Part shown: positions 16,039 through 32,706 of the stretch, in pieces
How positions within the stretch are numbered: position 1 is the first letter of the stretch
Layout: each line of letters begins with the position of its first letter
NCBI GenBank assembly: GCA_027306695.1
Contig: DAHUZH010000005.1
Coordinates: 358 to 64,357 of the forward strand
DNA from: Acidobacteriaceae bacterium
Lineage (GTDB): Bacteria > Acidobacteriota > Terriglobia > Terriglobales > Acidobacteriaceae
Length of the DNA stretch: 64,000 bases
Direction: 5' to 3'
Position numbers and translations under genes: made by a program
The notes under the pieces: model-generated
Database searches by the model: none
Told to the model about the DNA's origin: nothing
The model's input: only the letters and a program-made list of their open reading frames with translations

Positions 16039-16115
16039 GAAACAAAAACTTCACATTGGCCGCTCTCCAATGGCCATGCCGAATACCAATGAAAAAAAGG
16101 AGAAAAATAATTATG

Positions 16116-16144
16116 TTGACACTGCGGATGCTAGGCGCGAGACT
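16116..16144 (+). promoter_or_regulatory. Candidate promoter for the TBDR-peptidase array (TTGACA-17 nt-GAGACT)
   Basis: Perfect -35 at 16116-16121. The -10 is weak (only A2, A4 and T6 match). It lies ~95 nt upstream of ATG 16239. Confidence 0.25.
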
Positions 16145-16238
16145 GTTTTACATTCAACATCTCGAATGTGTAACGCATGTTTCCAAATTCCCCATCACGA
16201 AACGGCGTGTTTCGCTTGCTTTGCCAGGAGGCGCTTCA

Positions 16239-19200
16239 ATGGTCCGATATTCTGCGTTCCGCCCTATTCAACTCGTGTCGGTTCTGTTTGGGTTGTTCAT
16301 TCTGAGTTGTCCACTGCCTGCCCAGATCTCCGGTACGGGCGCAATTACGGGAGTGGTCAGCGACCCTTCTGGCGCTGTCGTTCCCGGGGCTTCCATTACG
16401 GCCACAGACTTGGCCACGGGGCTGGTCCGTCAGGTCACATCCAGTTCGAGCGGCGATTACGCGATTCAGCTTTTGCAGCCGGGTCGTTACCGGGTGGAAA
16501 TTACAAAAGAGGGGTTCGACACGTCGGACTTCGCAAATATCACGGTCAATGTGACGCAGATCACGGCTGTCAATGTCAGGCTCAAGGTTGGCTCGACCAA
16601 GCAGACGGTGCAAGTGCAGGCGGCCGGTCAACTGCTTGAGACCCAATCCAGCACGCTCGGATCTGTGGTTACGGGGGAGATGGTGCGCAATCTTCCTCTC
16701 GCCGTACGGAACTATACGCAGATCATTACCCTGTCGCCCGGCGTCGCCTCCGAAGTGACCAACGCGGCTGAATTCGGACGCGGCGGCGGCGGCGGCGGCG
16801 GAGCCACAACGGACAATCCGGTTGCGGCGGGTACAGCCTGGTCGGAAAACAATTTTCAGATGGATGGCGTGGGAATCAACAATCTCGGTGGCAGCGGGGC
16901 TTTCACTGGCGGCGTCGCCATTCCCAACCCCGACACGATTGCGGAGTTCAAGGTCCAGACCAGCCAGTACGATGCCTCGTATGGGCGCAATGCCGGGGCC
17001 AACGTCAACGTGGTCACAAAAACGGGCACCAATCAATTTCACGGCTCCGTGTGGGAGTTCTTCCGCAACGAAGCTCTCAACGCAAACGATTTTTTCCGCA
17101 AGCAGCAAGACCAACCCCGTGCCGTCCTGCGCCAGAACCAACCGGGCATGACGTTAGGTGGACCGGTCAAGCGCGACAAGGCATTTTTCTTTGTTTCCTA
17201 CCAATCCACGCGCCAGCTCAATGGTCTGGATCCGCAATGTTCTACCGCATTGAATACACCGCCGCTGACCAATGATCGTTCCGCGGCAGCTTTAGGCGCG
17301 TTGTTTGCCGGGCAGCCTACGTTTACCCAGGAACTTGGAATTCCCGGAGGGGCGACTGTGCTTCCCAACGGCTCCAATATCGCGCCGCAGGCGTTGGCCC
17401 TGTTCAATCTCAAGCTGCCGAACGGACAATATATCGTTCCCACGCCGCAGCGGATCGATACCTCCCTGCCGTTTGCCGGTCAGGGAGTCAGCACGATCAG
17501 CCAAGCCTGTCACTTCAATGAAGACCAGTTCATGACCAATGGGGACTGGGAGCAGTCGGCGGCCAGCCAATGGCAGGTGCGGTTCTTCTTCGCCAACAGC
17601 GAGCAGGCTTACACATTTCCATTTGCCAATCTCGGTGGCGCAACAGCCCCGGGGTTCCCGCTGGACGAACCCGATCACTTCCGCAACCTGTCGATCATTA
17701 ACAACCACGTTTTCAGCTCCAATCTTCTCAATCAGGCGGAGTTTGGGTTCCACCGTGTCTGGGTCGACACGGCCCAGCAGGAGGCATTCCATTATTCCGA
17801 TATCGGCGCGGCAGTCCCGTCCTTCGACACGTTGCCGGAGATCAATTTTCTTGGGGGCATCACGCTGGGAGGAAATGGGCAGACATTGCGTCTCGCACTC
17901 AATACCTTTGTGTACCAGGACACCGTATCGTGGACGCATGGAAACCATGCGTTCCGTTTCGGCGGCGGGGTAACACGCGCCCAGTACAACTTAGATACCC
18001 TGACGTTCCTTGGAGGCTTGCTTTTCGGCACCTATCCCGACGCGTTGCTCGGCGAGAGTGCGGCGCAAAATGGGACCCCATTCAGCAATATGTATCTTTC
18101 GATCGATTTTCCAAATGAGGACTCACGGAAATGGCGCACACTCGACTACCATGCGTATGCGCAGGACGACTACAAGGTCACGCCGCGTTTGACCCTCAAC
18201 CTGGGTTTCCGGTATGAGCGCATCGGAGACATTTCGGATGCGATGGGACGCGGCTCGAATTTCAATATCACGACCGCCAATCCTAACCCACCGGCGAGCG
18301 GATCGTTGCAGGGCTTTGTGGTCGCCTCGAACTTCAGCGGAACACCTCCGCCCGGCGTAACACGAGCACCGGGCAAGCTACCTTATGCGGGGGACGGTCA
18401 AAATACCCTCAACCCGCGCGTGGGCTTTGCCTGGCAGCTTCCGGAAACCGGTCGCGTGGTGCTGCGCGGAGGCTACGGGATCTTTCACGAAACGGCAACC
18501 GGTCAACCGAATATTCAATTGCTTCTCAATCCTCCGTTTGGGCAACTCCGCGAATTTGTCGGCGCGGGCAATGCAGCGGCAAACTGGGCCACCCCACTCC
18601 CGCCATTCACCGGCACATTTCCTTTCTTCACGCCGTACTCGCCGACCACAGCGCTCAGTCTGTTCGCCTACGCAAACAACTTTCGTCCAGCGGTGGTGCA
18701 GCACTACAGCCTGAATGCGCAGGCGGAGCTGGCAAGGAACACAGTGCTGGAGGTTGGATATCTGGGCACGCGAGGACAGCACCTGTTGATTACCCGCCTG
18801 CCAGACCAGGCCCTGTCGGCCAGCCCCGCCAGTCCCATCCGTGGACAAACGGACAACACGCTCGCGAATATTCCATTGCGGGTCCCGGTCGAGGGATTCA
18901 ATACGAGCACTTTCAATCAAATCGAATCGACTGGCTCCTCCTGGTACAATGCCCTGCTGGCGAATTTTACCCGGCGTTTCCAGAACGGTTCGGAAGTCCA
19001 GGTTGCATATACCTGGTCGCGCAGTCTCTCCGACACGCTTGCGGCCTCGACTGGCCCGAATGGAGGAACCAGGGAAGGCAATCAGAACGACCCAAGTGCG
19101 GACTATGGGCCGGACTATTTCAGCCGTCCCAACCGGCTGGTTGCGAACTTCGTGTACCAGATCCCCACACACTTCCGAACGACGTCGCTGACGGGCGAAG

Positions 19201-19709
19201 CTCTGGGAGGCTGGGCAGCGACTGGCGTGATTACGATTCAGTCCGGGCATTTTCTTTATGCCACCAATACCAATGCTCTCAATGCGTTTGGCATCAATAG
19301 TACGGACCAGGATTTTGCCGAACTGACGCCTACCTGTACCAGCTCTCAGCTTGGCACTCGCGGATCGGTGACCAGCAAGCTGAATAATTACTTCAATACG
19401 AATTGTTTTACATCGACTTATCCTGTCGTGGGTGCCGATGGGGTCGCAACCGGGTTCGGCAATTCAAAGCCTGGGCTGCTGCTTGGCCCAGCGCAAAACA
19501 ATGTGGACTTTGCAATGGCGAAGACGTTTCCATTTAACGTGCGTAGCAAGAGTGCGGACGTCCAATTCCGCGCCGAACTGTTCAACGCCTTCAACACGCC
19601 GCAATTCAGCGATCCAGGCCTGGCTTTGGATTCACCTACTTTCGGCGTGATTACTACCACTGCGGTTGCCCCAAGGATTATGCAGTTGGCCTTGAAAATC
19701 AACTTCTAA
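16239..19709 (+). CDS. TonB-dependent outer-membrane receptor with carboxypeptidase-regulatory-like N-terminal domain
   Basis: The tracked ORF starts at 16056. ATG 16239 has AGGAGG 7-8 nt upstream and gives the signal peptide MVRYSAFRPIQLVSVLFGLFILSCPLPAQ. 'GVVSDPSGAVVPGASITATDLATG...YRVEITKEGF' is CarboxypepD_reg-like. The protein ends ...ALKINF. Confidence 0.9.
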   Translation: MVRYSAFRPIQLVSVLFGLFILSCPLPAQISGTGAITGVVSDPSGAVVPGASITATDLATGLVRQVTSSSSGDYAIQLLQPGRYRVEITKEGFDTSDFANITVNVTQITAVNVRLKVGSTKQTVQVQAAGQLLETQSSTLGSVVTGEMVRNLPLAVRNYTQIITLSPGVASEVTNAAEFGRGGGGGGGATTDNPVAAGTAWSENNFQMDGVGINNLGGSGAFTGGVAIPNPDTIAEFKVQTSQYDASYGRNAGANVNVVTKTGTNQFHGSVWEFFRNEALNANDFFRKQQDQPRAVLRQNQPGMTLGGPVKRDKAFFFVSYQSTRQLNGLDPQCSTALNTPPLTNDRSAAALGALFAGQPTFTQELGIPGGATVLPNGSNIAPQALALFNLKLPNGQYIVPTPQRIDTSLPFAGQGVSTISQACHFNEDQFMTNGDWEQSAASQWQVRFFFANSEQAYTFPFANLGGATAPGFPLDEPDHFRNLSIINNHVFSSNLLNQAEFGFHRVWVDTAQQEAFHYSDIGAAVPSFDTLPEINFLGGITLGGNGQTLRLALNTFVYQDTVSWTHGNHAFRFGGGVTRAQYNLDTLTFLGGLLFGTYPDALLGESAAQNGTPFSNMYLSIDFPNEDSRKWRTLDYHAYAQDDYKVTPRLTLNLGFRYERIGDISDAMGRGSNFNITTANPNPPASGSLQGFVVASNFSGTPPPGVTRAPGKLPYAGDGQNTLNPRVGFAWQLPETGRVVLRGGYGIFHETATGQPNIQLLLNPPFGQLREFVGAGNAAANWATPLPPFTGTFPFFTPYSPTTALSLFAYANNFRPAVVQHYSLNAQAELARNTVLEVGYLGTRGQHLLITRLPDQALSASPASPIRGQTDNTLANIPLRVPVEGFNTSTFNQIESTGSSWYNALLANFTRRFQNGSEVQVAYTWSRSLSDTLAASTGPNGGTREGNQNDPSADYGPDYFSRPNRLVANFVYQIPTHFRTTSLTGEALGGWAATGVITIQSGHFLYATNTNALNAFGINSTDQDFAELTPTCTSSQLGTRGSVTSKLNNYFNTNCFTSTYPVVGADGVATGFGNSKPGLLLGPAQNNVDFAMAKTFPFNVRSKSADVQFRAELFNAFNTPQFSDPGLALDSPTFGVITTTAVAPRIMQLALKINF
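16780..16801 (+). repeat. In-frame (GGC)6-GGA trinucleotide repeat encoding Gly7
   Basis: cgc ggc ggc ggc ggc ggc ggc gga encodes R-G7 ('EFGRGGGGGGGATTDNP') inside TBDR2. Confidence 0.9.
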
Positions 19710-19728
19710 GTCTTACTTGAGGGCAGCA

Positions 19729-22700
19729 ATGAATAAGATCTTATTTTGTCTGGTCGCCTCTCTCTTTGTCGGCATGGGGGCGCAGGCCCAAAACGAAAAA
19801 CCGCTGCTGATGCAGCAACCGACGTTGAACGCTACCCGCATCGTGTTTGCATACGGAGGCGATCTGTGGCGGGTGGGCCGCGAAGGAGGCGCCGCGATAA
19901 GACTAACCAGCGGGCCGGGCGATAAATCCAACCCGAAATTTTCACCCGATGGGAAGTTGATCGCCTTCACGGGGAGATACGACGGGAACCCCAACGTTTA
20001 TGTGATGCCTGCGGAAGGCGGCCAACCGCGCCAACTGACCTATAGTCCCGGATGGGACATAGTGGAGGGTTGGACGCCGGACGGACAGAATGTTTTGTTC
20101 CAATCTCTTCGCGATAGCTTTTCTATGCGTTATAAGCAGCTTTATACCATCTCCATCCACGGCGGTTTCGCAAAGACATTGCCGCTGCCGATGGGGTATC
20201 AGGCGTCTTACTCGCCGGATGGAAGCCACCTGGCTTATACGCCCCTACCGCGCGAGATTTTTTTTGGCGGTCAGAACGTTCTTGTACATGCATACTGGGC
20301 GCATTACCACGGCGGACTTGCACCGCAGGTCTGGATCGCGGACCTGGCAGATTCCAGCGTCATCAAGGTCCCCCACGAAAACGCAAGCGACTTCAACCCG
20401 ATGTGGGTCGGGAACAAAATTTATTTTCTTTCGGCGCGCACGGAGCCAATCTCGCTCTATGTCTACGACACCGCTACGAAAAAAGTTTCTCAGGCGATCG
20501 AGAACTCCGGCATGGACATTATGTCCGCCTCCGCCGGGCCCGGCGCGATCGTGTATGAGCAGTTCGGGTCGCTCCATCTTTACGATCTTGCTAGCGGGCA
20601 TCAGCACGAAGTCCACGTAACGATCGCCGGCGACTTCCCGCAGACTCGTTCTCATTTTGAAAAGGTAGCCGACCACATCTTGAATTCTGGAATTTCTCCA
20701 ACCGGCGCACGCGCTGTGTTTGAGGCGCATGGTGAAATTCTTACCGTACCGGCGGAGAAAGGGAGCATTCGGAACATCACAAATTCACCAGGGGTCGCCG
20801 ACCGTTCGCCTGCGTGGTCCCCAGATGGAAAATCGATCGCCTATTTCTCGGATGAGTCAGGGGAATACACACTGGATATTAAGAGCCAGGATGGCATGGG
20901 CCCCGCACGTTCGATCGGTTTGGGAAAACTGTCGTCGTACTTCTTTCAACTTGCGTGGTCCCCGGACAGTCGGAAGCTGGTGTACACCGATAAGAGGTTA
21001 AATGTCTGGTATCTCGATCTGGATCATCCAGTACCGGTCAAGGTGGACACGGATTTTTATTTCGAATTTGGCCAGAACCTGAATCCCGCCTGGTCGCCGG
21101 ACAGCCGTTGGATCGTCTATACCAAGTTGCTCAAAAACCGTCTGCGGGCCGTGTTCGTCTATTCGCTGGAAACTGGCAAGGCCATGCAGGTCACGGATGG
21201 GTTGAGCGACGCGGAACATGCCGTTTTCGACAAGAGCGGGAAATATCTTTTCTTCACAGCTAGTACGAATGCGGGGCCAGCGAGCTTCGCGCTGGACATG
21301 ACAAGCGATCCTTTCCGGGTGACCCGCAGCGTTTATGTCGTGATATTGCGCAAAGGTCTTCCTTCCCCCCTGGCACCGCAAAGCGACGAAGAAAAAGTTG
21401 CGGCAGCCACTAAGGCCAATGCAGCGCAGGAGAAACCGGGCGCCAAACCAAAAGATGATAACGGCGCCGCTGTCCAGATCGATATCGACCGCATCAGTCA
21501 ACGCATCCTGGCGCTGCCGATTCCCGCAGCCAACTATACGATGTTGCAGGCAGGCAAGGCGGGAGAAATTTTTCTGCTCCAGACATCGCCAGAGACCCAT
21601 CGGTCCACGCTGGTTAAATTCAGCCTGGCGGACCGTCAAGTCACACAATTGTTGGCAGGTATTCAGGGAATCTCGGTTTCATTCGATGGCGAGAAGTTTC
21701 TATTTCAGCAGGGTGACAAATGGGGCATCGCTTCAACTGCTGCGCCGGTCAAGCCCGGCCAGGGGCTGCTTACTATGGATGCGATGCAGGTCTGGGTGGC
21801 GCCACGCGAAGAATGGGGCCAGATGTATCGCGAAGTATGGCGCATCGAACGCGACTATTTTTATGCTTCCAACTACGCTGGCCTGAATCTGACGGACTCC
21901 GAAAAAGAATATGGCCGCTATCTCCCGGGCATCAAGAGCAGGGAAGATCTCAATTATCTTTTTCGGGAGATGCTGGGGAAGCTCTCCACCGGGCATACGT
22001 TCGCAGGAGGCGGAGATATTCCCAGTCCGTCCCCAGTTGGCGTCGGCTTGCTGGGCGCGGATTACACAATCGAAAATGGCCGCTATCGTTTCAAGACGGT
22101 TTATAGCGGAGAGAACTGGAACCCGGAACTTCGCGCACCGCTGACCGAGCCAGGCGTCGATGTAAATGCTGGCGATTATCTGTTGGCGGTGAATGGCCGC
22201 GAGATCCATGGCAGCGACAACATCTATCGCTTTTTTCTCAATACCGTCGATCAGCAAGTAGCACTGAAGGTTGGGCCGAATCCAGACGGCTCAAACGCAC
22301 GGGAAGTGACCGTCGTTCCCATAGGTAACGAAATCGCGCTGCGGGGCCGTAATTGGATATATGACAATCTTCGCAAGGTCGACGAGTTAAGCGGTGGAAA
22401 AATCGCTTACGTATATCTACCCGACACCGCGGAAGGTGGGATCACCTCGTTCAACCGCTACTTCTTCGCACAGGTTGGAAAGCAGGGCGTGATTGTCGAT
22501 GATCGTTTCAACAGCGGTGGCCAGGCCGCAGACTACATTATCCAGTATTTGCAGCGGACACTCTGGAATTACTGGTATACGCCGAACGGCGCTGTTCAGA
22601 CGGAACCGGGAGAAGCCATCTTCGGCCCCAAGGCTATGCTGATCAACCCCTATGCGGGTTCAGGCGGCGATCTGATCCCGTGGTTCTTCCACCATAACAA

Positions 22701-23007
22701 TGTTGGAATGCTCATCGGAGAAAGGACTTGGGGTGGCGAGGTTGGAATTACGGGATATCCGCCGCTGATCGACGGCGGAGAGGTGACTGCGCCCAGCCTC
22801 GCCTTCTTTACCAAGGAAGGCAAATGGGGAATTGAAAACGAAGGTATACCGCCTGACGTTGAGGTATCTATGGATCCAAAAGCATGGCGTCAGGGCCGCG
22901 ACCCGCAATTGGAGAAAGCAGTACAAGTGGTACTCGAAAAGCTCAAAGCCAATCCTCTGCCAAAGCCTACAGTGCCACCGTTCCCGGATTACTATAAGAC
23001 GCACTGA
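19729..23007 (+). CDS. Tricorn-protease homologue (beta-propellers + PDZ + peptidase S41 core) with Sec signal peptide
   Basis: ATG 19729 gives MNKILFCLVASLFVGMGAQAQ. 'IVFAYGGDLWRVGREGGAAIRLTSGPGDKSNPKFSPDGKLIAFTGRYDGNPNVYVM' plus repeated 'SPAWSPDGKSIAYFS' / 'NPAWSPDSRWIVY' blades. C-terminal 'VIVDDRFNSGGQAADYI' is S41-like. ~1092 aa. Confidence 0.85.
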   Translation: MNKILFCLVASLFVGMGAQAQNEKPLLMQQPTLNATRIVFAYGGDLWRVGREGGAAIRLTSGPGDKSNPKFSPDGKLIAFTGRYDGNPNVYVMPAEGGQPRQLTYSPGWDIVEGWTPDGQNVLFQSLRDSFSMRYKQLYTISIHGGFAKTLPLPMGYQASYSPDGSHLAYTPLPREIFFGGQNVLVHAYWAHYHGGLAPQVWIADLADSSVIKVPHENASDFNPMWVGNKIYFLSARTEPISLYVYDTATKKVSQAIENSGMDIMSASAGPGAIVYEQFGSLHLYDLASGHQHEVHVTIAGDFPQTRSHFEKVADHILNSGISPTGARAVFEAHGEILTVPAEKGSIRNITNSPGVADRSPAWSPDGKSIAYFSDESGEYTLDIKSQDGMGPARSIGLGKLSSYFFQLAWSPDSRKLVYTDKRLNVWYLDLDHPVPVKVDTDFYFEFGQNLNPAWSPDSRWIVYTKLLKNRLRAVFVYSLETGKAMQVTDGLSDAEHAVFDKSGKYLFFTASTNAGPASFALDMTSDPFRVTRSVYVVILRKGLPSPLAPQSDEEKVAAATKANAAQEKPGAKPKDDNGAAVQIDIDRISQRILALPIPAANYTMLQAGKAGEIFLLQTSPETHRSTLVKFSLADRQVTQLLAGIQGISVSFDGEKFLFQQGDKWGIASTAAPVKPGQGLLTMDAMQVWVAPREEWGQMYREVWRIERDYFYASNYAGLNLTDSEKEYGRYLPGIKSREDLNYLFREMLGKLSTGHTFAGGGDIPSPSPVGVGLLGADYTIENGRYRFKTVYSGENWNPELRAPLTEPGVDVNAGDYLLAVNGREIHGSDNIYRFFLNTVDQQVALKVGPNPDGSNAREVTVVPIGNEIALRGRNWIYDNLRKVDELSGGKIAYVYLPDTAEGGITSFNRYFFAQVGKQGVIVDDRFNSGGQAADYIIQYLQRTLWNYWYTPNGAVQTEPGEAIFGPKAMLINPYAGSGGDLIPWFFHHNNVGMLIGERTWGGEVGITGYPPLIDGGEVTAPSLAFFTKEGKWGIENEGIPPDVEVSMDPKAWRQGRDPQLEKAVQVVLEKLKANPLPKPTVPPFPDYYKTH

Positions 23008-23028
23008 AGCAGTTCTAAATAGAAAAGG

Positions 23029-25041
23029 ATGAGGTCCGCTGTGAAACTAAATCGTGGGATAGTTTTTTCGTTAACCACACTCGCGTTGTGTGTGCCGTTT
23101 ATTCTTCGAGCCGATGGCCAGCGTCCCAAATTGCCAGCACCTCCGCCTGCCGTTCAGGTGCCGGGTTCTGCCTCGACCTCTGCTCCAACACCTTCTACAC
23201 CGGCGGCGATGACCGCCCAGGATATAGACGCTTTTCTTGACGGGGTAGTGCCGCTTCAGCTCAAAGAGCAGAACATCGCCGGCGCGGTGGTGATCGTTGT
23301 TAAGGATGGCAAGGTCCTTTATGCCAAGGGCTATGGGTACTCCGACGTCAAGAATAAAAAGCCGGTCACAACCGATGCGACTCTCTTCCGCCCGGGATCG
23401 ACCTCTAAATTATTTACCTGGACAGCGGTCATGCAACTGGTCCAGCAAGGGAAGATCGATCTGGACCGCAACGTGAATGACTATCTCGATTTCAAAATTC
23501 CCGACACTTACCCGCAGCCAATTACCATGCGCAATCTGATGACGCATACGCCGGGATTTGAAGAGTCGATCCAGGACCTGATCGTCGACAATCCGAAGGA
23601 CATGGAACCTCTGGGTAAATACCTGAAGACGCATGTGCCAGCGCGCGTTTTTCCGCCGGGTACAACAGGGGCCTACTCGAACTACGGCGCGGCCCTGGCC
23701 AGCTACATCGTGCAGCGCGTTTCCGGTGTTCCTTTCGACGAATATATCGAGAAAAATATTTTTGGGCCGCTCAACATGCAGCACTCAACCTTCCGCGAGC
23801 CTCTGCCAGCCAATCTAAAACCGCTGATGTCGAATGGCTATAAGTTGGCATCCGGGAAGCCTCAGCCGTTTGAATTTGTGTTGCCGACCGGCGCTGGCGG
23901 CATGAGTACAACCGCAGAGGACATCTCGCACTTCATGCTCGCTCATTTGCAGGGAGGAGAATACAACGGCGTCAGCATTCTGCAGCCGGCGACGGTGGCC
24001 GAGATGCACACGCGTCAGCAATATGGAGAAAATCCCGCCACTAGCGGCATGTGTTTGGGATTTTACGAGGAGAGCCGCAATGGCCACCGGATCATAGGCC
24101 ACGGCGGGGACACGATATTTTTTCATAGCAATCTGCATTTAATGCCCGACGCCAATTTTGGTTTTTTTGTTTCCTACAACAGTGCAGGCAAGGGAGGGAT
24201 CAGTCCGCGCGATGCCCTCTGGGACCAGTTCCTCGATAGGTATTTTCCATATACCATTCCTGCCGCATCTCCTGTCACCAATGCCGTTCAGGACGCGAAA
24301 TTGGTCGCTGGTCAATATAGCGTGAGCCGTGGCGGATTCACGAACATTTTTAGCTTTACTCAACTTTTAGGGGAATTGACGATAAGCGCCAAACCCGACG
24401 GCACAATCCTCACGGACGATATGAAGACCCTGGCTGGAGAACCCAGGCAATGGAAAGAGATCGCTCCGCTGGTGTATCGCTCGATCGATGGGCAAAGTCT
24501 GCTGGCGTTTCAACGAAATGCCAACGGCGGCCTGCGTGCTTCCATCGACTATCCGTTTATGGTCTTTGACCGGGTTTCTTTCCTAAACGGCAAATCATTC
24601 AATATGGTCCTGCTGTTCTTTGTTCCTATTGTCACTTTGTTCGCTGTCCTCTCCTGGCCGATTGCCACCTGGATGCGGAAACATTACCATCGTCCGCTTG
24701 TGCTAACTCCTGTACAGAGGCGGTCCTATATCGCCCTGCGCATTGTCTGCCTGTTGGATGTGGTGTTCTGCCTAGGTTGGCTCATTCTTCTTTCCAAACT
24801 AGGGGAAGGTTTTGCCCTCTTTTCTTCTCATCTGGATCCCGTCCTGCGGCTGATCCAGATTGTCGGTTGGCTGGGAAGCCTGGGCACTCTAGTTGTCCTA
24901 TATGCCATTTTTCAGTTACGGAACATGGAAAATAGCTGGTGGCTGGCAAGGATCAGTTATGGATTGGTCGGCGTGGCCTGCATTGGGTTTTCCTGGTTTC
25001 TTCTCCATTGGCACATGCTCCATTTCAGCATCAGGTTCTAA
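23029..25041 (+). CDS. Serine hydrolase (beta-lactamase/peptidase S12 family) with C-terminal 4-TM membrane anchor
   Basis: Signal peptide. SxxK motif in 'RPGSTSKLFTW'. 'NLMTHTPGF'. The last ~150 aa form four hydrophobic helices (VLLFFVPIVTLFAVLSWPIA, IALRIVCLLDVVFCLGWLILL, LIQIVGWLGSLGTLVVLYAIF, GLVGVACIGFSWFLL). Confidence 0.85.
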   Translation: MRSAVKLNRGIVFSLTTLALCVPFILRADGQRPKLPAPPPAVQVPGSASTSAPTPSTPAAMTAQDIDAFLDGVVPLQLKEQNIAGAVVIVVKDGKVLYAKGYGYSDVKNKKPVTTDATLFRPGSTSKLFTWTAVMQLVQQGKIDLDRNVNDYLDFKIPDTYPQPITMRNLMTHTPGFEESIQDLIVDNPKDMEPLGKYLKTHVPARVFPPGTTGAYSNYGAALASYIVQRVSGVPFDEYIEKNIFGPLNMQHSTFREPLPANLKPLMSNGYKLASGKPQPFEFVLPTGAGGMSTTAEDISHFMLAHLQGGEYNGVSILQPATVAEMHTRQQYGENPATSGMCLGFYEESRNGHRIIGHGGDTIFFHSNLHLMPDANFGFFVSYNSAGKGGISPRDALWDQFLDRYFPYTIPAASPVTNAVQDAKLVAGQYSVSRGGFTNIFSFTQLLGELTISAKPDGTILTDDMKTLAGEPRQWKEIAPLVYRSIDGQSLLAFQRNANGGLRASIDYPFMVFDRVSFLNGKSFNMVLLFFVPIVTLFAVLSWPIATWMRKHYHRPLVLTPVQRRSYIALRIVCLLDVVFCLGWLILLSKLGEGFALFSSHLDPVLRLIQIVGWLGSLGTLVVLYAIFQLRNMENSWWLARISYGLVGVACIGFSWFLLHWHMLHFSIRF

Positions 25042-25060
25042 AAACAGAGATCTGATTTTT

Positions 25061-27202
25061 ATGACGATTAAAAAACGGTTCCTCCGGCCTTCGACAGTGG
25101 CATGCGCGTTTCTATGCAGTGTTTCCGCAGGGGTTGTATGCCAACCCATTACCGCCAAGTCCTTCACGATTGAACAGGTCATGAGTTCTCCATTTCCTTC
25201 TGAACTTACCGCCGCGAAGCAAGGATCGACGGTGGCCTGGGTATTCAATCTGAAAGGAGCGGCAAATGTGTGGGTCGCTGCTGGCCCATCCTTTGCGCCC
25301 CATCAGGTCACGCAGTATCAGGGAGATAATGGCCAGCCCATTGCCTCCCTGCAACTTACGCCGGATGGAAAGACCGTGGTCTATGCGCGCGGCACGGAAG
25401 TGAATGCCGTGGGGCGTTCGGCCAACTCCACAACAGACCCACAGCAACCGAAACAACAAGTATGGGCGGCGGACATCGGCAAAGGCGTTCCGCGACTGCT
25501 CGGCGATATGGGTTGCGCGTATGAAGGTTGTGAAGACATCAAGATTTCTCCGAATGGAAAATGGGCCGTCTGGGCGGCCAAGCAAGAGTTATGGATCGCG
25601 CCAATCTCCGGTGCAGTCAAGGCGAAGCAACTTACCGATCTGCAAGGAGATGTTTCCACGCCGCAGTGGTCCCCGGACAGCAAACGCCTGGTGATGGATG
25701 TGAATCGCAAGGACCACAGCTTGATCGTCATCGCCGACCTTACTGGTGACAGCGTCCAGGCCTACCATTACGTCGCGCCCTCGGTCGACCGCGACATGTT
25801 TCCCCACTGGTCGCCGGACGGTAAATCCGTTATTTTTATTCGCACTCCCGGCTTTGAAGATAAGCGCCCCTTGATCCCGGTGCGCACAATCACCTGGAGT
25901 CTCTGGGTAGGAGACGCGCAGACTTATAAGGCCCAATCCATTTGGAAGAGTGGAAGCCAGTCGCGAGATTCCTTGCCGAATTTTGCTGAAACATCCCTCC
26001 ATTTTGGGGCCGGGAACCGCATCGTATTCGATTCGGAACAGGATGGATGGAGTCATCTTTATTCCATCGCGGCCACTGGTGGCGAACCTGTCCTGCTTAC
26101 TCCCGGCGACTTTTCCATTGAGGATTCGTCGCTCAGTGCCGATCGGAAAAATGTATTGTTTTCCTCCAACCAGGACGATATCGACCGCCGCCATCTGTGG
26201 AGCGTAAGCATAGCTGGCGGAAAGGCGCAGTCCGCACTGACGAAAGGCGAGACCATCGAATGGACGCCAGTAGAGACCGGAGATGGTAAGTCGGTCCTAT
26301 GTCTGGGATCGACTGCAACCACTCCAGCGCTGGTCTATCAGGTCGCAAATGGAAAGCGGGAACTTGTTACAAAAAATGCTCTGTCCAAGGATTTTCCAAG
26401 CGCCCAACTCGTAGTTCCCAAGCAAGTCATCTTTAAGAGTGAAGATGGTTATACGATTCACGGTCAGCTTTTTATGCCAAAGGGTCAGACCAAGCCGGGT
26501 CCGGGATTGATTTACACTCACGGCGGCCCACCCCGTCAAATGCTTCTGGGATTCAATTACCTGGACTACTATCACTATGCCTATGCCGAGAATGAGTATC
26601 TGGCAAGCCTCGGATTTACCGTTCTGTCCGTCAACTACCGCCTGGGGATCATGTATGGCCATGACTTCCGCATGGCGCCCAATACTGTCTGGCGTGGGGC
26701 CGCGGAATATAAAGATGTTCTGGCCGGCGCCAAGTATCTACAAAGCTTGCCTACGGTCGATCCGAACCGCATAGGTCTTTGGGGTGGTTCCTACGGAGGG
26801 TTTCTTACTGCGATGGGCCTGGCGCGCAACTCGGACATTTTCAAGGCCGGCGTCGATTATCATGGCGTGCACGATTGGGAAGTCTTTTTGCCGGACTGGG
26901 AGGAAGGCGCGACCTCCGCACCGGACTTGAAAGAAGCGAAGAAACTTGCGTGGGAATCATCTCCAGACTCTTCCGTGAGTCGCTGGAAATCTCCGGTCCT
27001 GCTCATTCAAGGAGATGATGATCGCAATGTTCCATTCAGCCAGACCGTTGACTTGGCGCAACGGTTGCGCGACAACCATGTTCCATTTGAGCAAATTGTT
27101 TACCCCGATGAAATCCACGATTTTCTTCTCTGGAAGGATTTCATCCATTCTTATCAGGCGACGGCGCAGTTCTTTCAACAGCATCTCTCTGAGGGGAAAT
27201 AA
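25061..27202 (+). CDS. Peptidase S9 (prolyl-oligopeptidase / dipeptidyl-peptidase type) with N-terminal beta-propeller
   Basis: The tracked ORF starts at 24893 inside the previous gene. ATG 25061 gives the signal peptide MTIKKRFLRPSTVACAFLCSVSAGVVC. Propeller blades ('PQWSPDSKRLV', 'PHWSPDGKSVIF'). Nucleophile elbow 'LWGGSYGGFLT', then 'LLIQGDDDRNVP' and 'YPDEIHDF' (Ser-Asp-His order of S9). Confidence 0.9.
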   Translation: MTIKKRFLRPSTVACAFLCSVSAGVVCQPITAKSFTIEQVMSSPFPSELTAAKQGSTVAWVFNLKGAANVWVAAGPSFAPHQVTQYQGDNGQPIASLQLTPDGKTVVYARGTEVNAVGRSANSTTDPQQPKQQVWAADIGKGVPRLLGDMGCAYEGCEDIKISPNGKWAVWAAKQELWIAPISGAVKAKQLTDLQGDVSTPQWSPDSKRLVMDVNRKDHSLIVIADLTGDSVQAYHYVAPSVDRDMFPHWSPDGKSVIFIRTPGFEDKRPLIPVRTITWSLWVGDAQTYKAQSIWKSGSQSRDSLPNFAETSLHFGAGNRIVFDSEQDGWSHLYSIAATGGEPVLLTPGDFSIEDSSLSADRKNVLFSSNQDDIDRRHLWSVSIAGGKAQSALTKGETIEWTPVETGDGKSVLCLGSTATTPALVYQVANGKRELVTKNALSKDFPSAQLVVPKQVIFKSEDGYTIHGQLFMPKGQTKPGPGLIYTHGGPPRQMLLGFNYLDYYHYAYAENEYLASLGFTVLSVNYRLGIMYGHDFRMAPNTVWRGAAEYKDVLAGAKYLQSLPTVDPNRIGLWGGSYGGFLTAMGLARNSDIFKAGVDYHGVHDWEVFLPDWEEGATSAPDLKEAKKLAWESSPDSSVSRWKSPVLLIQGDDDRNVPFSQTVDLAQRLRDNHVPFEQIVYPDEIHDFLLWKDFIHSYQATAQFFQQHLSEGK

Positions 27203-27208
27203 GTCCCA

Positions 27209-28126
27209 ATGACAACTCCAGACCACGATGGTTTACGGACAACCTCGCAGCTTTCCAGGCAGATTCTTACATTCATTGCATGCGTGGTTTTGTTCAGCAG
27301 CGTGCCCTATTCCTTCATCATCCATTCCGGGCATCTTGGAGTAGGCAATGGGCTGATGACTGCGCTTTTAATGTGGTGTCCGGCATTTGCCGCCTTTGCG
27401 ACTTGCGGATTTTTCAGGATCGATATCGCGAGTCTCGGATGGAACTGGCGGCCCACATGTTATGAGGTCTGGGCGTATCTGCTTCCGATTTTCTATGCCT
27501 TTCCTGTCTATGTGGTTACATGGACATTCATTAGCGGCTCCTTTCAATTTTCCGCGTTTGCTGCTTCGTCCGGTGCAGCCTTTGGATTCCCCCACTGGTC
27601 GCGAACCATTACCTTCCTGGTGGTTCTGCCCACCTATGCGTCTGTCGGCGTGATTAGCTCGATGGCTCGTACACTTGGAGAAGAGATCGGCTGGAGAGGT
27701 TTCCTGCTGCCACGGCTGGTGCAGCGTATGGGCTTTACCTTAGGTTGTTTTATAAGTGGTTGTATCTGGGCGGTGTGGCATTATCCTGCACTGCTGCTTG
27801 CCGATTACAATGCCGGTACGCCACGAATTTATGCACTGACCTGCTTCACCCTTATGGTGATAGGTGCTGCCTATGTTTTCGGCTGGTTCCGGCTCAAATC
27901 TGGCAGCTTGTGGCCTGCGGCGATGTTACATGCCAGCCACAATCTATTCATCCAGGCCATCTTCGATCGCATGACCCACCCGTCTGGCAAAGCACTGTAT
28001 GTTACGACTGAATTCGGCGCAGGATTGGCTCTGACAATCGGGGCCTGTGCATTCTATCTTTGGACTCGGCGTCGAGAAATAAACGATGCACTTCCAGGCT
28101 ATTCTGGGATGCAACCCCGAAGATAA
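27209..28126 (+). CDS. CPBP-family intramembrane glutamic endopeptidase (CAAX protease / Abi-like)
   Basis: Polytopic. Motif 1 'GEEIGWRGFLLPRL' (EExxxR), motif 2 'IWAVWHYP', motif 3 'AMLHASHNL'. Starts 6 nt after the S9 stop. Confidence 0.85.
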   Translation: MTTPDHDGLRTTSQLSRQILTFIACVVLFSSVPYSFIIHSGHLGVGNGLMTALLMWCPAFAAFATCGFFRIDIASLGWNWRPTCYEVWAYLLPIFYAFPVYVVTWTFISGSFQFSAFAASSGAAFGFPHWSRTITFLVVLPTYASVGVISSMARTLGEEIGWRGFLLPRLVQRMGFTLGCFISGCIWAVWHYPALLLADYNAGTPRIYALTCFTLMVIGAAYVFGWFRLKSGSLWPAAMLHASHNLFIQAIFDRMTHPSGKALYVTTEFGAGLALTIGACAFYLWTRRREINDALPGYSGMQPRR

Positions 28127-28460
28127 GCGGATCTTCGTCGCCGATCCAAAGGAAGGGTCGCGGCACAATCGTGGCTGCGCCGTGGATCTGACTCTTTATG
28201 ACCTGAAGACTGGAAAGCCGATCGAAATGACGGGCGTTTACGATGAAATGTCCGAGCGGTCCTATCCTTTTTATCCGGGAGGGACTTCGCTCGAGCGCTG
28301 GCATCGCGATCTTCTGCGGCATGTGATGGAGTCGGAGGGCTTTCAGGTGTACGAGTTCGAGTGGTGGCATTTCGATTACAAGGACTGGCAACATTATCCC
28401 ATTTTGAATTTGAAGTTCGAAGATTTGAATGGGGCCGCAGCAATGAAGAAAGCAGCGTGA
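28086..28460 (+). pseudogene. D-Ala-D-Ala dipeptidase (VanX/DdpX, peptidase M15D) remnant lacking the N-terminal ~75 residues
   Basis: 'FVADPKEGSRHNRGCAVDLTLYD...MTGVYDEMSERSYPF...FEWWHFDY' matches the SxHxxGxAxD zinc site and the ExxH of VanX/DdpX. The frame is closed by TAA at 28080-28082 one codon upstream of the ATG. The ORF overlaps the CPBP 3' end by 41 nt. It could still be translated as a 124-aa stub. Confidence 0.6.
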
Positions 28461-28490
28461 GTTGAAAATGCCACGCGTCGATGAGGCCCA

Positions 28491-31400
28491 ATGACAATGA
28501 TGAAGAATAAGAAAACGATTTTGTTCTCGTTTGCAGCCCTTGCGATGTTCCTGATATGGCCGCGGAATATGCCAGCCCAGAACGTGAGCGCGTTGGCCGA
28601 GCAAATCCATCAAATCACGCACAGGCCTGTCTACGAACATTCAAGTTTCGGCGTGGAAGTGTATTCGCTGGATGAAGACAAAGTTATATACTCGCTTCGC
28701 AGCCAGCAGCTTTTCACGCCAGCCTCAACAACCAAGCTGCTGACGGAAGGCACCGCTCTTCAGCTTCTCGGTCCGGGTTACCGCTTTCACACGCGAGTCT
28801 ATCGCACGGGCCCGGTCACTCCAGAAGGCACATTGCAGGGCGATTTGGTTCTTGTAGCGAGCGGAGATCCGAATCTCTCGGGCCGGATTCAGCCAGATGG
28901 CGCGTTGGCATTCGAGAACGAAGATCATGCCTATGGCGGCAGCCCCGACACCAAAGCCGTTCCCGGCGATCCGTTGCTGGTGGTCCAGGAACTTGCGGCG
29001 CAAGTCGTAGCGCACGGCGTGAAGCGTATTGCAGGGCGTGTTCTGGTGGACGCAACGCTGTTTCCCGAAGGGGAACGGGACCTTGGGACTGGCATCGTGA
29101 TTTCACCGGTCTCAGTGAACGACAACATCGTAGACCTGACGGTTGCGCCGGGCAGCAAGGAAGGCGCCGCTGCCACGCTGCATATTTCGCCAGCAAGTAC
29201 GTATGTAACATTTGTCAACCAGATCACCACTGGGCCTGCCGGTTCAAAGCCGGATATAAATCCGATGGCGGACGTCACAAATCCAGACGGCTCGCATACT
29301 GTGACGCTGAGCGGAAAGTTCCCGCTGAACAGCCCCTCCATCCTTTATCCCTATGCGGTTCCGCAACCGAACCGCTTCGCTCAGATGGCCTTCGCCGAAG
29401 CTCTTCGTGCAAAGGGCATCCAGGTGGGAACTTCGTCGCCGAGCGGGAAGCCTGATTTCAAAACATTAGCGGCTTCTTATACGGATGGAAATGTCGTTGC
29501 GGAGCACGTCTCGCCTCCTCTCTCCGAAGAAGTCAAGGTGACCTTGAAGGTCAGCCAGAATCTGCATGCCAGCATGATGCCATTCATTCTCGGTGCCGTG
29601 CTCAGTCACAAGACGCAGGACGCGGAGCAGGCCGGTTTCGATCTCGAACACGATTTTCTCGCCAAAGCCGGTCTGGACCTGAGCGGCGCTTCGCAGGGGG
29701 ATGGAGCGGGCGGCGCGCAATCTGCCTTCTTTACGCCGGATTTCATGGTGCATTACCTCGCGTTCATGTCGAAACAGAAAGACTTCCAGCTTCTTGAAAA
29801 AGCACTTCCGATTCTTGGCCGTGACGGAACACTTTGGAATATAGAAGTAAATTCACCGGCAGCAGGACACGTCTTTGCCAAAACTGGCACCTTTGGTGCG
29901 TACGACGCGCTGAATAAGAATTTGATGCTTACCGGCAAAGGTCTGGCGGGTTACATGACAACCGCCGATGGCCGCCACGTCGCATTTGCGATCTACGCCA
30001 ATCGTGTTTCATTGTCCGCAGAGGATACGGATGCTCCTGAGAAGCTCGTGGGCCAGGCGCTGGGAAAAATTGCAGCGGCAATTTATTCCACTCCATCGGG
30101 TGAAGCAGCGCCCTTCGACGTCATCATCAAGAATGGTCACATTCTCGACGGTGCTGGAGGTACCTGGTACGCGGCCGACATTGGAATTCGTGGAAACCGC
30201 ATCGCGGCGATCGGAAAACTCGATGACGCGCAGGCCAAGAAGGTGATTGACGCAACCGGTCAAATTGTTTCGCCTGGCTTCATCGACATGCTTGGGCAGT
30301 CGGAGATGGCCCTTCTTGTCGATAACCGCTCGCTGAGCAAGCTATCGCAAGGGATCACGTCCGAGATCACGGGCGAGGGTGGCTCGATCGCGCCGCAGGA
30401 CGCAAGGACGCTTGCAGCACTCCAACCCTCCCTGGATGTCCTGCATGTCAAGGTCGACTGGACGACCCTCGATGGCTACTTCCGCCGCCTTCAACTGAAC
30501 GGGACGCCGCTCAATCTCGGCACATACGTTGGCGCGGCGCAGGTACGTGAAGCTGTGATTGGGGAGGAGGACCGCGCTCCCACGCCGGCCGAACTCGACC
30601 AGATGAAAGCTCTGGTGGCGCAGGCGATGAAGGATGGAGCGATGGGGCTTTCCACGGCATTGATTTATCCGCCCGGCTCCTATGCCAGGACGGATGAATT
30701 GATTGCGCTCGCCAAGGTTGCCGCGCAATATGGCGGCATTTACGCGACCCACATGCGCAGCGAGGGTGCAACGGAAATGCAAGCTCTCGATGAAGCGATC
30801 CGCATTGGCCATGAAGCTGGATTGCCGGTGGAGGTCTTCCACCTTAAAGCGAGTGGCAAGTCACGTTGGGGCACAATGCCACAGATTGTCGCAAAGATTC
30901 AGGCGGCGCGCGACTCCGGGCTTGACATCCGCGCCGATCAATACCCTTACCTCGCGGGCGGAACCGCACTGGCCTCCGCGCTGCCGCCGTGGGTGGCCGA
31001 CGGCGGAGTGGAGAAACTGCTCGAACGCTTGCATGACCCAAAAGTTCGTGCGCGTATCAAGCGCGAGATGGGCGCCGACCACAAAGATTGGGAAAATCTC
31101 TATTTCGACAGCGGCGGCGGATCGGGCGTACTCATTTCTGGCGTTGTCAATCCTGCGCTGAAAAAGTACAACGGCAAGACTGTGGCGCAGATGGCGAAGG
31201 CGGAAGGAAAGCCTGATCTGGATGCATTGCTCGACTTTATCCTCGCCGACAAGGCCCAGACCGGAGCGCTCTATTTCATCGCCAATGAGAAGGACTTGAC
31301 GTACGCCCTCAAGCAGCGGTGGACCTCAATTTGCCTGGATGCCAACGAGACATCACTCAATGGGCCACTCTTTGAACCGCAGAACCATCCCCGAGCGTGG

Positions 31401-31733
31401 GGAGCTTTTCCGCGCTTCCTCGGATACTACGTCCGCGACGAGCACTTGATGCCGCTTGCGGAGGCCATTCGGAAGATCACATCTATGCCGGCGCAGCGGG
31501 AACATCTGACCAACCGCGGACTCATCAAAACGGGTTTCTACGCGGATATCACGATCTTCGATCCGGCTACGATCATTGATCGCGCCACATACGCCAACCC
31601 AAATCAACTTTCAAACGGCGTGGATTACGTGTTGGTCAATGGCCAGCTTGAATACGATCACGGGAAATTGGCTGCCGCGAAAGCGGGACAGATCCTCCGC
31701 GGGCCCGGCTGGTATGGAACCTCCGGTCGCTAG
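28491..31733 (+). CDS. Fusion protein: PBP4-type D-Ala-D-Ala carboxypeptidase/endopeptidase (peptidase S13, DacB-like; aa 1-~532) + D-aminoacylase-like amidohydrolase (aa ~542-1080)
   Basis: Signal peptide MTMMKNKKTILFSFAALAMFLIW. S13 motifs 'TPASTTKLLT' (SxxK), 'VSQNLHA' (SxN) and 'FAKTGT' (KTG). Linker STPSGEAAP at 30087-30113. Then 'FDVIIKNGHILDGAGG...GNRIAAIG...SPGFID', 'GGIYATHMRSEG', 'VFHLK' and 'HPRAWGAFPRFLGYYVRD' are typical of N-acyl-D-amino-acid deacylases. Confidence 0.85.
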   Translation: MTMMKNKKTILFSFAALAMFLIWPRNMPAQNVSALAEQIHQITHRPVYEHSSFGVEVYSLDEDKVIYSLRSQQLFTPASTTKLLTEGTALQLLGPGYRFHTRVYRTGPVTPEGTLQGDLVLVASGDPNLSGRIQPDGALAFENEDHAYGGSPDTKAVPGDPLLVVQELAAQVVAHGVKRIAGRVLVDATLFPEGERDLGTGIVISPVSVNDNIVDLTVAPGSKEGAAATLHISPASTYVTFVNQITTGPAGSKPDINPMADVTNPDGSHTVTLSGKFPLNSPSILYPYAVPQPNRFAQMAFAEALRAKGIQVGTSSPSGKPDFKTLAASYTDGNVVAEHVSPPLSEEVKVTLKVSQNLHASMMPFILGAVLSHKTQDAEQAGFDLEHDFLAKAGLDLSGASQGDGAGGAQSAFFTPDFMVHYLAFMSKQKDFQLLEKALPILGRDGTLWNIEVNSPAAGHVFAKTGTFGAYDALNKNLMLTGKGLAGYMTTADGRHVAFAIYANRVSLSAEDTDAPEKLVGQALGKIAAAIYSTPSGEAAPFDVIIKNGHILDGAGGTWYAADIGIRGNRIAAIGKLDDAQAKKVIDATGQIVSPGFIDMLGQSEMALLVDNRSLSKLSQGITSEITGEGGSIAPQDARTLAALQPSLDVLHVKVDWTTLDGYFRRLQLNGTPLNLGTYVGAAQVREAVIGEEDRAPTPAELDQMKALVAQAMKDGAMGLSTALIYPPGSYARTDELIALAKVAAQYGGIYATHMRSEGATEMQALDEAIRIGHEAGLPVEVFHLKASGKSRWGTMPQIVAKIQAARDSGLDIRADQYPYLAGGTALASALPPWVADGGVEKLLERLHDPKVRARIKREMGADHKDWENLYFDSGGGSGVLISGVVNPALKKYNGKTVAQMAKAEGKPDLDALLDFILADKAQTGALYFIANEKDLTYALKQRWTSICLDANETSLNGPLFEPQNHPRAWGAFPRFLGYYVRDEHLMPLAEAIRKITSMPAQREHLTNRGLIKTGFYADITIFDPATIIDRATYANPNQLSNGVDYVLVNGQLEYDHGKLAAAKAGQILRGPGWYGTSGR

Positions 31734-31772
31734 CTGTGGAGCCTCATCCCGATTTCACCAAGAGTGCTCGCT

Positions 31773-32534: not shown

Positions 32535-32706
32535 TGTCGTCCCTCACTTTGTCCAATACATGCGAATCTTTATCTATAATGATACAAATGTTTCTTATTG
32601 TCTTGGTTTGCGCAGAACAGAGACGCCATAGAAATAATTAGTAAAAAATTAATAAAACACGAAACATTCAGCGATGTGAAACATTTGATGCATTTCTCAA
32701 TACAGC

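Follow-up and report, generated by a model that had tools for sequence, protein, structure and literature searches.

Gene content of the array and its flanks

The 64,000-nucleotide (nt) stretch analysed here, in the following called the window, was taken from contig DAHUZH010000005.1 of an Acidobacteriaceae bacterium (assembly GCA_027306695.1, positions 358 to 64,357 of the forward strand). At window positions 16239-31733 it carries seven co-directional open reading frames (ORFs) on the + strand, headed by a gene for a TonB-dependent receptor (TBDR) and continued by genes of exported or membrane-bound peptidases, and this array is analysed together with its flanking genes and their counterparts in relatives, whose loci are labelled L001, L008, L168 and so on. 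The ORF check of the window reproduced exactly the coordinates of a preliminary description of this DNA, including the gaps of 19, 21, 19, 6 and 30 nt and one 41-nt overlap. The family assignments made there were upheld for every array ORF by hidden Markov model (HMM) searches of Pfam and NCBIfam, on which all family calls in this work are based.

The first gene (16239..19709, +) encodes an outer-membrane barrel of the TBDR type with an N-terminal CarboxypepD_reg domain; OMP_b-brl_4 (PF25183) matched with 572 bits and PF00593 with 27.6 bits at a cut-off of 27. The protein ends in KINF, i.e. with the C-terminal aromatic residue (Phe) of TonB-dependent transporters, and the Plug domain (PF07715) was found sub-threshold, its match of 21.8 bits (cut-off 23.9) spanning profile positions 10-105 of 107. 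Its start at 16239 is backed by GGAGG-N7-ATG, which is conserved in five genomes. The TBDR gene is followed by that of an exported tricorn-like S41 peptidase (19729..23007, +) with a signal-peptide-like N-terminus, where the PD40 (beta-propellers), Tricorn_C1, PDZ_Tricorn and Peptidase_S41 domains characteristic of the tricorn type all scored above cut-off.

The third gene (23029..25041, +) codes for an S12 serine hydrolase, termed S12TM, with a signal peptide and four C-terminal transmembrane (TM)-like segments at residues 527-660. It matched PF00144 (Beta-lactamase) with 213 bits and possesses the S12 motifs SxxK (STSK at 124), YxN (YSN at 216) and HxG (HGG at 358); Pab87 and alkaline D-peptidase are among its nearest relatives of known structure, a similarity from which a preference for D-residues is only predicted. 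An exported S9 peptidase with a propeller (25061..27202, +; Pfam Peptidase_S9 and DPPIV_N, GGSYG motif) and a CPBP (Rce1-like) intramembrane protease (27209..28126, +; PF02517, 63 bits) come next, the latter with the motifs EExxxR (EEIGWR at 158), FxxxH (WAVWH at 187) and HxxxN (HASHN at 241). The row ends with a stump of a VanX-type M15 peptidase gene (28086..28460, +; Pfam Peptidase_M15) and a gene for an exported fusion of a PBP4-type S13 domain with a D-aminoacylase-like amidohydrolase, S13::Amidohydro_3 (28491..31733, +; Pfam, NCBIfam).

A signal peptide or TM helices, previously ascribed to every product, were found for six of the seven, the M15 stump having neither. Inside the array, for which no hairpin followed by a T-run had been reported, the + strand terminator-like matches are all intragenic. 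Over the entire window, 20 terminator-like matches compared with 18.9 ± 4.1 in shuffled sequences, and the counts from sigma-70 promoter and terminator scans were no higher than the shuffle expectation.

The calls made earlier for the flanking genes were equally correct. On the left, an exported S12 + DUF3471 serine hydrolase gene (12910..14418, -; Pfam, signal-peptide-like N-terminus, SxxK and YxN motifs) lies downstream of, and on the same strand as, a gene for a cytoplasmic enolase-superfamily racemase of the NSAR/OSBS subfamily (14480..15628, -), with a 61-nt gap; the pair recurs in L088, L091 and L150. For the racemase, hereafter NSAR, TIGR01928 gave 342.9 bits versus a cut-off of 200.65, a KxK motif is present at residue 162, and solved structures of N-acylamino acid racemase (NAAAR) matched at about 1e-101 (1e-93 to 1e-103); as NSAR and OSBS activity are not separable by sequence, the name stands for a subfamily-level call. 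The identity of an L-Ala-D/L-Glu epimerase was rejected based on a match of 1e-29 versus 1e-101 for NSAR-type structures.

On the right, a GNAT-fold acyltransferase of 253 aa (31773..32534, -) was recognised by a weak Pfam match, with PDB and NCBIfam matches being uninformative; in L016, L017 and L022 its gene overlaps that of NSAR by 7 nt. It is followed by an APC-family amino-acid permease (32707..34080, -; Pfam, NCBIfam) with 10 TM-like segments, the inner-membrane carrier of the gene set thus being an amino-acid permease and not a peptide permease, and by an RpiR/MurR-family regulator (34055..34936, -; HTH_6 and SIS domains, Pfam, NCBIfam). Two further Amidohydro_3 paralogues were assigned using Pfam, namely the exported stand-alone D-aminoacylase-like amidohydrolase DAA2 (35216..36943, +) and the second exported paralogue DAA3 (43988..45709, -). 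All hydrolases look exported, while NSAR, GNAT and RpiR have no signal peptide and look cytoplasmic.

Co-localisation of the genes across Terriglobia

Linkage was assessed in 80 species-level loci centred on S12TM, with partner genes counted within 10 kb. NSAR was present in 30 loci, RpiR in 29, the orthologous TBDR in 24, the permease in 14, S9 in 13, S41 in 11, the fusion in 8 and M15 in 6, compared with about 0.3 of 80 loci expected by chance, according to our own estimate, for a single-copy gene in a genome of about 5 Mb. At least three partners were found in 29 of the 80 loci, in shuffled gene orders, and in eight loci the orthologous TBDR is the direct neighbour of S12TM. The set that co-localises in shuffled orders across Terriglobia comprises TBDR, S12TM, NSAR, RpiR, permease, GNAT, S9, S41, S13::amidohydrolase and M15. 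It joins genes of the array with flanking genes named in the preliminary description, and their recurrent association supports a functional link between the genes of what is, in the following, called the island.

Particularly complete versions are the nine-gene co-directional arrays of L068 and L082, which read S13::DAA-S9-(M23)-RpiR-TBDR-S12TM-permease-NSAR-exported M15-S12_DUF3471. The exported M15 of relatives is either fused to S12 or a separate secreted protein of 348-359 aa. Genes for M23 (lysostaphin-type) peptidases, one more cell-wall-specific family, were seen in or beside the island at L082:3497-5032 and L003:1-1363.

An operator-like palindrome tracking RpiR

A first search for shared inverted repeats with 6-nt arms in the intergenic regions revealed nothing in common. 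Aligning the TBDR upstream regions of orthologues, in turn, uncovered a 14-bp palindrome, GAAAC-N4-GTTTC. In the window it occurs as GAAACGAACGTTTC at 15659..15672, 37 nt upstream of the NSAR start; as GTAACGCATGTTTC at 16170..16183 in the TBDR leader, 63 nt upstream of the ATG at 16239; as GATACAAATGTTTC, with one mismatch, at 32581..32594, 53 nt upstream of GNAT; and as GCAACAATTGTTTC at 35114..35127 in the spacer between the divergent RpiR and DAA2 genes. A spacing variant, GAAACGGCGTGTTTC, is found at 16199-16213, also in the TBDR leader. All four matches with at most one mismatch in the 64-kb window are, thus, located upstream of island genes; no match was found for DAA3 in the motif scan of the window.

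The positions are retained in relatives. The NSAR site has an offset of -37 to -39 also in L010, L038, L088, L091 and L150, the TBDR site is found at offsets of -57 to -68 in L008, L009, L017, L038, L088 and L150, an exact palindrome occupies the same place upstream of GNAT in L005, and a site identical to GCAACAATTGTTTC is present in L008 (at 18308) and L005 (at 7291). L003 has near-matches in front of RpiR and of S12::M15. Over 2.35 Mb of loci, 24 of the 35 exact palindromes lie within 300 nt upstream of island genes, regions making up 4.9% of the sequence (P = 8e-24). Loci that contain an RpiR orthologue of at least 50% identity have 5.0 palindromes per 100 kb, those containing only a distant RpiR paralogue (36-38%) have 0, and those in which no RpiR was seen have 0.37.

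The functional link between the array and its flanks is supported by a conserved palindromic operator-like site that precedes four transcription units in the window and tracks the RpiR orthologue. We infer that the RpiR-family protein probably controls the island regulon, with the protein being the candidate binder of the palindrome.

The region upstream of the TBDR gene (window 16000-16238) is conserved in 5-8 genomes. It contains an invariant -35-like TTGACA (16116..16121, +) in the alignment of five genomes and also in L088 and L150, an invariant GAGACTG 17 nt downstream of it as an unusual -10-like element, the block AATGAAACAAAAA and a leader of about 90 nt. Rfam at the gathering threshold gave no match in the whole window, which also has no tRNAs, so that the TBDR leader does not correspond to any known riboswitch.

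Mosaic origin of the seven-gene row

Comparison with relatives showed that the array is composed of two parts. By blastn and alignment, homology to L008 runs through CPBP up to window position 28101 and resumes at 31768, with the stop codons of CPBP and GNAT being about 20 nt apart in L008. Conversely, homology to L001 and L003 begins exactly at 28102 and ends at the stop of the fusion gene. The breakpoints at 28101/28102 and about 31767 were, thus, found independently against L008, L001 and L003, and delimit a segment of 3.67 kb (28102..31767, +) that holds the M15 stump and the S13::amidohydrolase gene between CPBP and GNAT. As CPBP and GNAT adjoin each other without the insert in L008, L088, L091 and L150, the segment is best read as an insertion. 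A deletion in L008 instead was judged less likely, given that the same adjacency recurs in L088, L091 and L150.

The conserved core upstream of the insertion is TBDR-(optional S12_DUF3471)-S41-S12TM-S9, which is found in L008, L009, L010 and L038, headed by TBDR orthologues of 73-81% identity; in three of these four loci, unrelated genes follow S9. The optional gene is an extra exported S12 + DUF3471 gene between TBDR and S41 (L008:4790-6550, L009:4542-6356), a place taken in the window by a gap of 19 nt. In the metagenome-assembled genome GCA_036267255, the TBDR-S41-S12TM-S9 module (L009) and a TBDR-S12::M15-S13::amidohydrolase module (L002) are located on different contigs. CPBP is a variable, unstable accessory of the island: it was found in only two S12TM-centred loci, L008 and L013, and, when loci were centred on CPBP, next to island genes in L088, L091 and L150, with most of the 80 loci of CPBP homologues being unlinked. 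In the window, the 3' end of CPBP has been replaced by the insertion, its last eight codons (28102-28126) being M15-derived sequence read in another frame. In L168 (8719-9711), CPBP was called as an ORF of 330 aa that extends deeper into the decayed stump.

All seven genes were encountered in this order in a single sister lineage only (L005/L168/L169); L168 shares the insert arrangement and the junction with the window at 92.9% identity over 16.8 kb. Conservation of the gene order in relatives, which the preliminary description had named as a test of its proposal, is, hence, confined to that lineage and fails in L008, L009, L010 and L038. The 15.5-kb array does not stand as a conserved unit; it resolves into a TBDR-S41-S12TM-S9 module, with or without CPBP, and the 3.67-kb insertion, and the row of seven genes is a recent mosaic and not an ancestral unit. 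A scan of metagenome contigs for the junction-specific DNA GATGCNCTTCCAGGCTATTCTGGG gave 0 hits, and an exact look-up in public assemblies returned no record of the window fusion protein or of the cluster member P0123.

According to this comparison, a piece of a second regulon module, consisting of S12::M15 and then S13::amidohydrolase, would have been inserted behind the TBDR-S41-S12TM-S9-CPBP operon. The event would have cut the S12::M15 gene to a stump of 116 codons and placed the fusion gene, which lacks a promoter of its own, after the TBDR operon. In L001 the start of the fusion overlaps the stop of S12::M15 by 4 nt, suggesting that the fusion is normally co-expressed with S12::M15. The locus may, thus, illustrate how such islands evolve by shuffling and re-insertion of regulon members, here with a datable gene stump left behind.

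Origin and fate of the M15 stump

The preliminary description listed a VanX/DdpX remnant, and a partial M15 domain was indeed confirmed; its source could now be traced. In L001 and L002 (85% identity) and in L003 (80%), the gene upstream of the fusion encodes an exported protein of 819-828 aa that comprises S12 and a complete M15 domain. At 86-89% identity, the window stump matches residues 681-796 of the L001 protein (819 aa) and 691-806 of the L003 protein (828 aa), and is, therefore, identified as the 3' end of a truncated S12::M15 gene. Its frame is open over 124 codons, with the ATG and the first five codons coming from CPBP-side sequence, and no M15 homology was detected upstream in any frame. 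The stump covers profile positions 107-187 of 199, i.e. less than a complete VanX/DdpX domain of about 190-200 residues, and the DdpX model scored 85.5 bits versus a cut-off of 176. It keeps SxHxxGxAxD (SRHNRGCAVD at residue 25) and ExxH (EWWH at residue 92), and with them the Zn ligands and the catalytic Glu. The window S12 gene at 23029-25041 was rejected as the 5' half of the broken S12::M15, the identity of 32-33% being that of a paralogue; it is orthologous to S12TM of L008-L010 at 71-78%.

In the sister lineage the stump is a pseudogene, with the same frameshifts and stops in the three independent assemblies L005, L168 and L169 (window 28086-28460 compared with L005:261-672, L168:9596-10007 and L169:1-368). 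Polarised by outgroups, 35 derived substitutions in the 359-nt stump fall to the sister lineage and 7 to the window lineage; the corresponding numbers for the neighbouring fusion gene are 77 and 63. This asymmetry of the stump is significant in a binomial test (P = 1e-4) and in a Poisson test against the neutral expectation from a synonymous divergence (dS) of 0.139 (P = 1.5e-4). No indels occurred in the window lineage, and the window-L005 comparison contains three indel columns. The window stump evolves at a constrained rate, for which selection on a mini-M15 product or gene conversion from a paralogue are possible causes.

The S13::amidohydrolase fusion and its metal site

The S13 domain of the fusion protein matched TIGR00666 with 175.3 bits versus a cut-off of 107.8, which assigns it to the PBP4 equivalog. 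Conservation of the fusion was evaluated on the best 120 listed homologues, which are 64-95% identical to it, and all of those carrying a taxon label belong to Acidobacteriota/Terriglobia. SxxK and SxN do not vary in this set, nor do the Lys and Gly of KTG, with its Thr occurring in 117 of the 120.

The best solved relative of the amidohydrolase domain is the D-aminoacylase of A. faecalis (PDB 1m7j/1rjp; E = 1e-82). The metal ligands expected of an N-acyl-D-amino-acid deacylase (D-aminoacylase, EC 3.5.1.81) are, in the numbering of the A. faecalis enzyme, Cys96, His220 and His250 (beta site) and His67 and His69 (alpha site), to which the catalytic Asp366 is added. His220, His250 and Asp366 are kept in the fusion; His67 is changed to Leu, His69 to Gln and Cys96 to Gly, with a Glu at position 95. 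The altered stretch corresponds to window positions 30276-30380 (fusion residues 601-630). LxQ in place of HxH and EG in place of N-Cys96 are invariant in the 120 homologues and equally found in DAA2 and DAA3. The PRK09061 model gave 213 bits versus a cut-off of 340.

The earlier label "D-aminoacylase-like" is, thus, justified as a family resemblance and not with respect to the canonical metal ligands. A mononuclear metal site of the Glu/His/His type is conceivable for this domain. Since half of the canonical metal ligands are replaced, D-aminoacylase activity of the exported subfamily is uncertain, and the annotation "D-aminoacylase" of the whole subfamily, resting on such a domain, should be used with caution.

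Proposed function of the island

Taken together, we propose a Terriglobia island, probably one RpiR regulon, that imports and dismantles D-amino-acid peptides, most plausibly stem peptides from dead cells, and assign a probability of about 0.58 to this reading. The D-amino-acid or peptidoglycan peptide substrate is suggested because the enzyme families point there; M15D enzymes, for instance, are D-Ala-D-Ala dipeptidases. Gene content, linkage and motif were observed directly, and the activities in the following scheme are predicted from family knowledge and context. Oligopeptides would be imported by the TBDR. In the periplasm, the tricorn-like S41 and S9 peptidases would cut ordinary (L-) peptide bonds, and S12TM, S12-DUF3471 and the PBP4-type S13, in relatives joined by exported VanX-type M15 and M23, would cut DD- or D-terminal bonds. 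Free amino acids would then be taken up by the APC permease, and D-amino acids may be converted to L-amino acids via N-acyl intermediates by GNAT and NSAR.

Several observations weigh against this assignment. No partner gene was present in 44 of the 80 S12TM loci, and the number of palindromes in the window alone does not exceed chance (4 versus 2.0 expected), only their placement being significant. SIS-domain regulators of the RpiR type usually sense sugar phosphates. S12, S9 and S41 are large families with many members that are not D-specific, and three TBDRs of this type are encoded in the window alone. Three of the six canonical D-aminoacylase ligands are replaced in the fusion. The search of the annotated window ORFs yielded no M20 L-specific deacylase for the NSAR pathway, and no enzyme processing the glycan part of muropeptides is present in the window. 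Finally, in L004 (8354-13219) the fusion gene (76% identity) lies directly downstream of murJ, apart from all other island genes, hinting at a role in the cell's own wall in some lineages.

This last arrangement is also what would be expected from housekeeping recycling of the organism's own peptidoglycan, in which the fusion would be the PBP4 of the lineage, the S12 and M15 enzymes would trim own stems, permease and NSAR would serve in salvage, and the TBDR would be incidental. Such a role, which agrees with the high conservation of the fusion, with sub-threshold AmpH-like NCBIfam matches of S12TM and S12::M15, and with the remodelling of the E. coli wall by PBP4 and AmpH-type enzymes, is, in our assessment, unlikely: the TBDR orthologue beside S12TM, its presence in 24 of 80 loci and the shared operator in its leader speak for import from outside, and a dedicated repressor-type site combined with variable presence across genomes fits an inducible catabolic island better. 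A defence locus against D-amino-acid peptide antibiotics or beta-lactams appears slightly more doubtful still. There, S12TM would act as a D-stereospecific resistance peptidase, reportedly as TriF and BogQ do, S12 and S13 would bind or hydrolyse beta-lactams, M15 would be glycopeptide-related and CPBP of an immunity type. The membrane anchor of S12TM, its relationship to alkaline D-peptidase and Pab87, weak matches to class C beta-lactamase models and the bacteriocin immunity function of some CPBP family members are compatible with it. Yet the scores for beta-lactamase equivalogs are all far below cut-off (99 versus 415 bits), an efflux pump and a sensor kinase are absent from the unit, CPBP is no stable member of the island, and an operator common to permease, NSAR and GNAT suits assimilation and not detoxification.

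An operon for general protein or oligopeptide scavenging, with S12 and S13 as ordinary esterases or peptidases and clustering that merely reflects nitrogen acquisition, is improbable. Tricorn-like S41 and S9 are general oligopeptidases, an S15 gene occurs in L026, and clusters of TBDR and peptidase genes are common, but the recurrence of S13 with intact PBP motifs, VanX-type M15, M23 (L082, L003) and NSAR in common neighbourhoods is difficult to account for unless D-residues or cell-wall bonds are involved. Very little weight is given to catabolism of another N-acyl-D-amino compound, such as oxidised chitin products, under a sugar-acid-binding SIS regulator. It is brought to mind by OngB, a PDB match of the amidohydrolase domain (E = 9e-65) and a member of the D-aminoacylase family that is reported to deacetylate N-acetyl-glucosaminic acid and belongs to a chitin-oxidation pathway (PMC9537276). 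A GH2 gene preceding the TBDR in L001 and the usual ligands of RpiR/SIS regulators point the same way. On the other hand, the window contains no chitinase, lytic polysaccharide monooxygenase, hexosaminidase, deaminase or KDG kinase, the three amidohydrolases have signal-peptide-like N-termini, and at least five peptidase families co-localise. No alternative accounts as well as uptake and breakdown of D-amino-acid peptides for a single motif that unites TBDR, permease, NSAR and GNAT with peptidase families of the cell-wall type, four or five in number.

A fuller version of the D-peptide proposal, to which we would give somewhat less than even odds, is an RpiR regulon marked by GAAAC-N4-GTTTC that couples TBDR import to periplasmic breakdown of stem peptides of peptidoglycan or other D-peptides to free amino acids by two exported bifunctional enzymes and to D-to-L conversion by GNAT and NSAR. 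The two enzymes would be the PBP4::D-aminoacylase-like protein with a new Glu/His/His-type site and the S12::VanX-type dipeptidase. In soil, a large part of the organic nitrogen resides in peptidoglycan and D-amino acids, which turn over slowly, and Acidobacteriota rank among the most abundant bacteria there. If true, the proposal would provide this phylum with a dedicated route for the mineralisation of bacterial necromass. An observation in one genome has, at any rate, been turned into a testable regulon with a gene set, a candidate regulator, a 14-bp operator-like site at fixed positions and two conserved fusion enzymes.

Relation to known systems

No described system of this composition was known to the preliminary description, and none was found in the literature searched, which contained no account of a dedicated system for uptake or degradation of cell-wall peptides in Acidobacteriota, nor of the island, the S13::amidohydrolase fusion, the S12::M15 fusion or the motif. 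The locus had been likened to the polysaccharide utilisation loci (PULs) of Bacteroidota (SusC/SusD). The similarity consists in an outer-membrane TonB importer heading co-directional exported hydrolases and in a locus-encoded regulator, and the linked gene set and enzyme families agree with a PUL-like locus for D-peptides. However, the TBDR belongs to the acidobacterial CarboxypepD_reg/OMP_b-brl_4 type, peptidases take the place of carbohydrate-active enzymes, and the regulator is of the RpiR type and not HTCS, ECF or SusR. The SusD family had no match in any scanned ORF of the window, with the S41 gene following the TBDR gene by 19 nt, so that, strictly speaking, the locus is no PUL.

E. coli ddpXABCDF encodes a D-Ala-D-Ala dipeptidase and a dipeptide permease, and is induced by starvation. 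There, as in the island, a VanX-type M15D enzyme is linked to a transporter for nutrient use of cell-wall D-Ala-D-Ala. In contrast to the cytoplasmic dipeptidase and the ABC dipeptide permease of E. coli, the M15 of the relatives is exported, the carrier is an amino-acid permease, and the window retains only a stump of M15. Gram-negative peptidoglycan recycling involves AmpG, AmpD, LdcA, MpaA and the YcjG epimerase. It shares with the proposed pathway the dismantling of stem peptides, the salvage of amino acids and an enolase-superfamily enzyme. The locus, by contrast, has no homologue of AmpG, AmpD, NagZ or LdcA, its racemase is NSAR-type, and breakdown would be periplasmic, followed by import of free amino acids.

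The Sakai-type operon for D-to-L amino acid conversion (2006, as cited in PMC12006748) combines GNAT, NSAR and an L-specific M20 deacylase. The NSAR/OSBS racemase next to GNAT in relatives of the window resembles it. Unlike in that operon, the amidohydrolases of the island are D-aminoacylase-like and exported, the window yielded no M20 L-desuccinylase, and the genes belong to a putative TBDR/peptidase regulon. The nearest published case is a TonB-dependent transporter gene adjoining a D-aminoacylase gene in the marine gammaproteobacterium NOR5-3, where uptake of N-acyl-D-amino-acid derivatives was predicted from context (PMC3400609). That case is a single adjacency without a peptidase set. In the window, PBP4 and amidohydrolase form one protein, and the metal site of the latter is non-canonical. 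Compared with the A. faecalis D-aminoacylase, the amidohydrolases of the window differ in being exported, in the fusion of one of them to S13, and in their metal ligands.

Other features of the window

The window edge (33-734) carries a truncated transposase ORF whose DDE_Tnp_1 match spans profile positions 82-198 of 200. It is about 27 kb away from the 3.67-kb insertion, and no link between the two was found. An ORF of 774 aa at 8103-10427 had no Pfam match at E <= 0.001. A third TBDR gene at 1015-4698 is followed by genes for two TPR proteins. The second TBDR of the window, without SusD, heads a co-directional L-rhamnose cluster (50846-63848) comprising an aldolase/SDR fusion, an FGGY kinase, an isomerase-like TIM barrel, RhaT, RhaM and a GH78-like rhamnosidase, which indicates that TBDR-led substrate arrays are in use in this genome.

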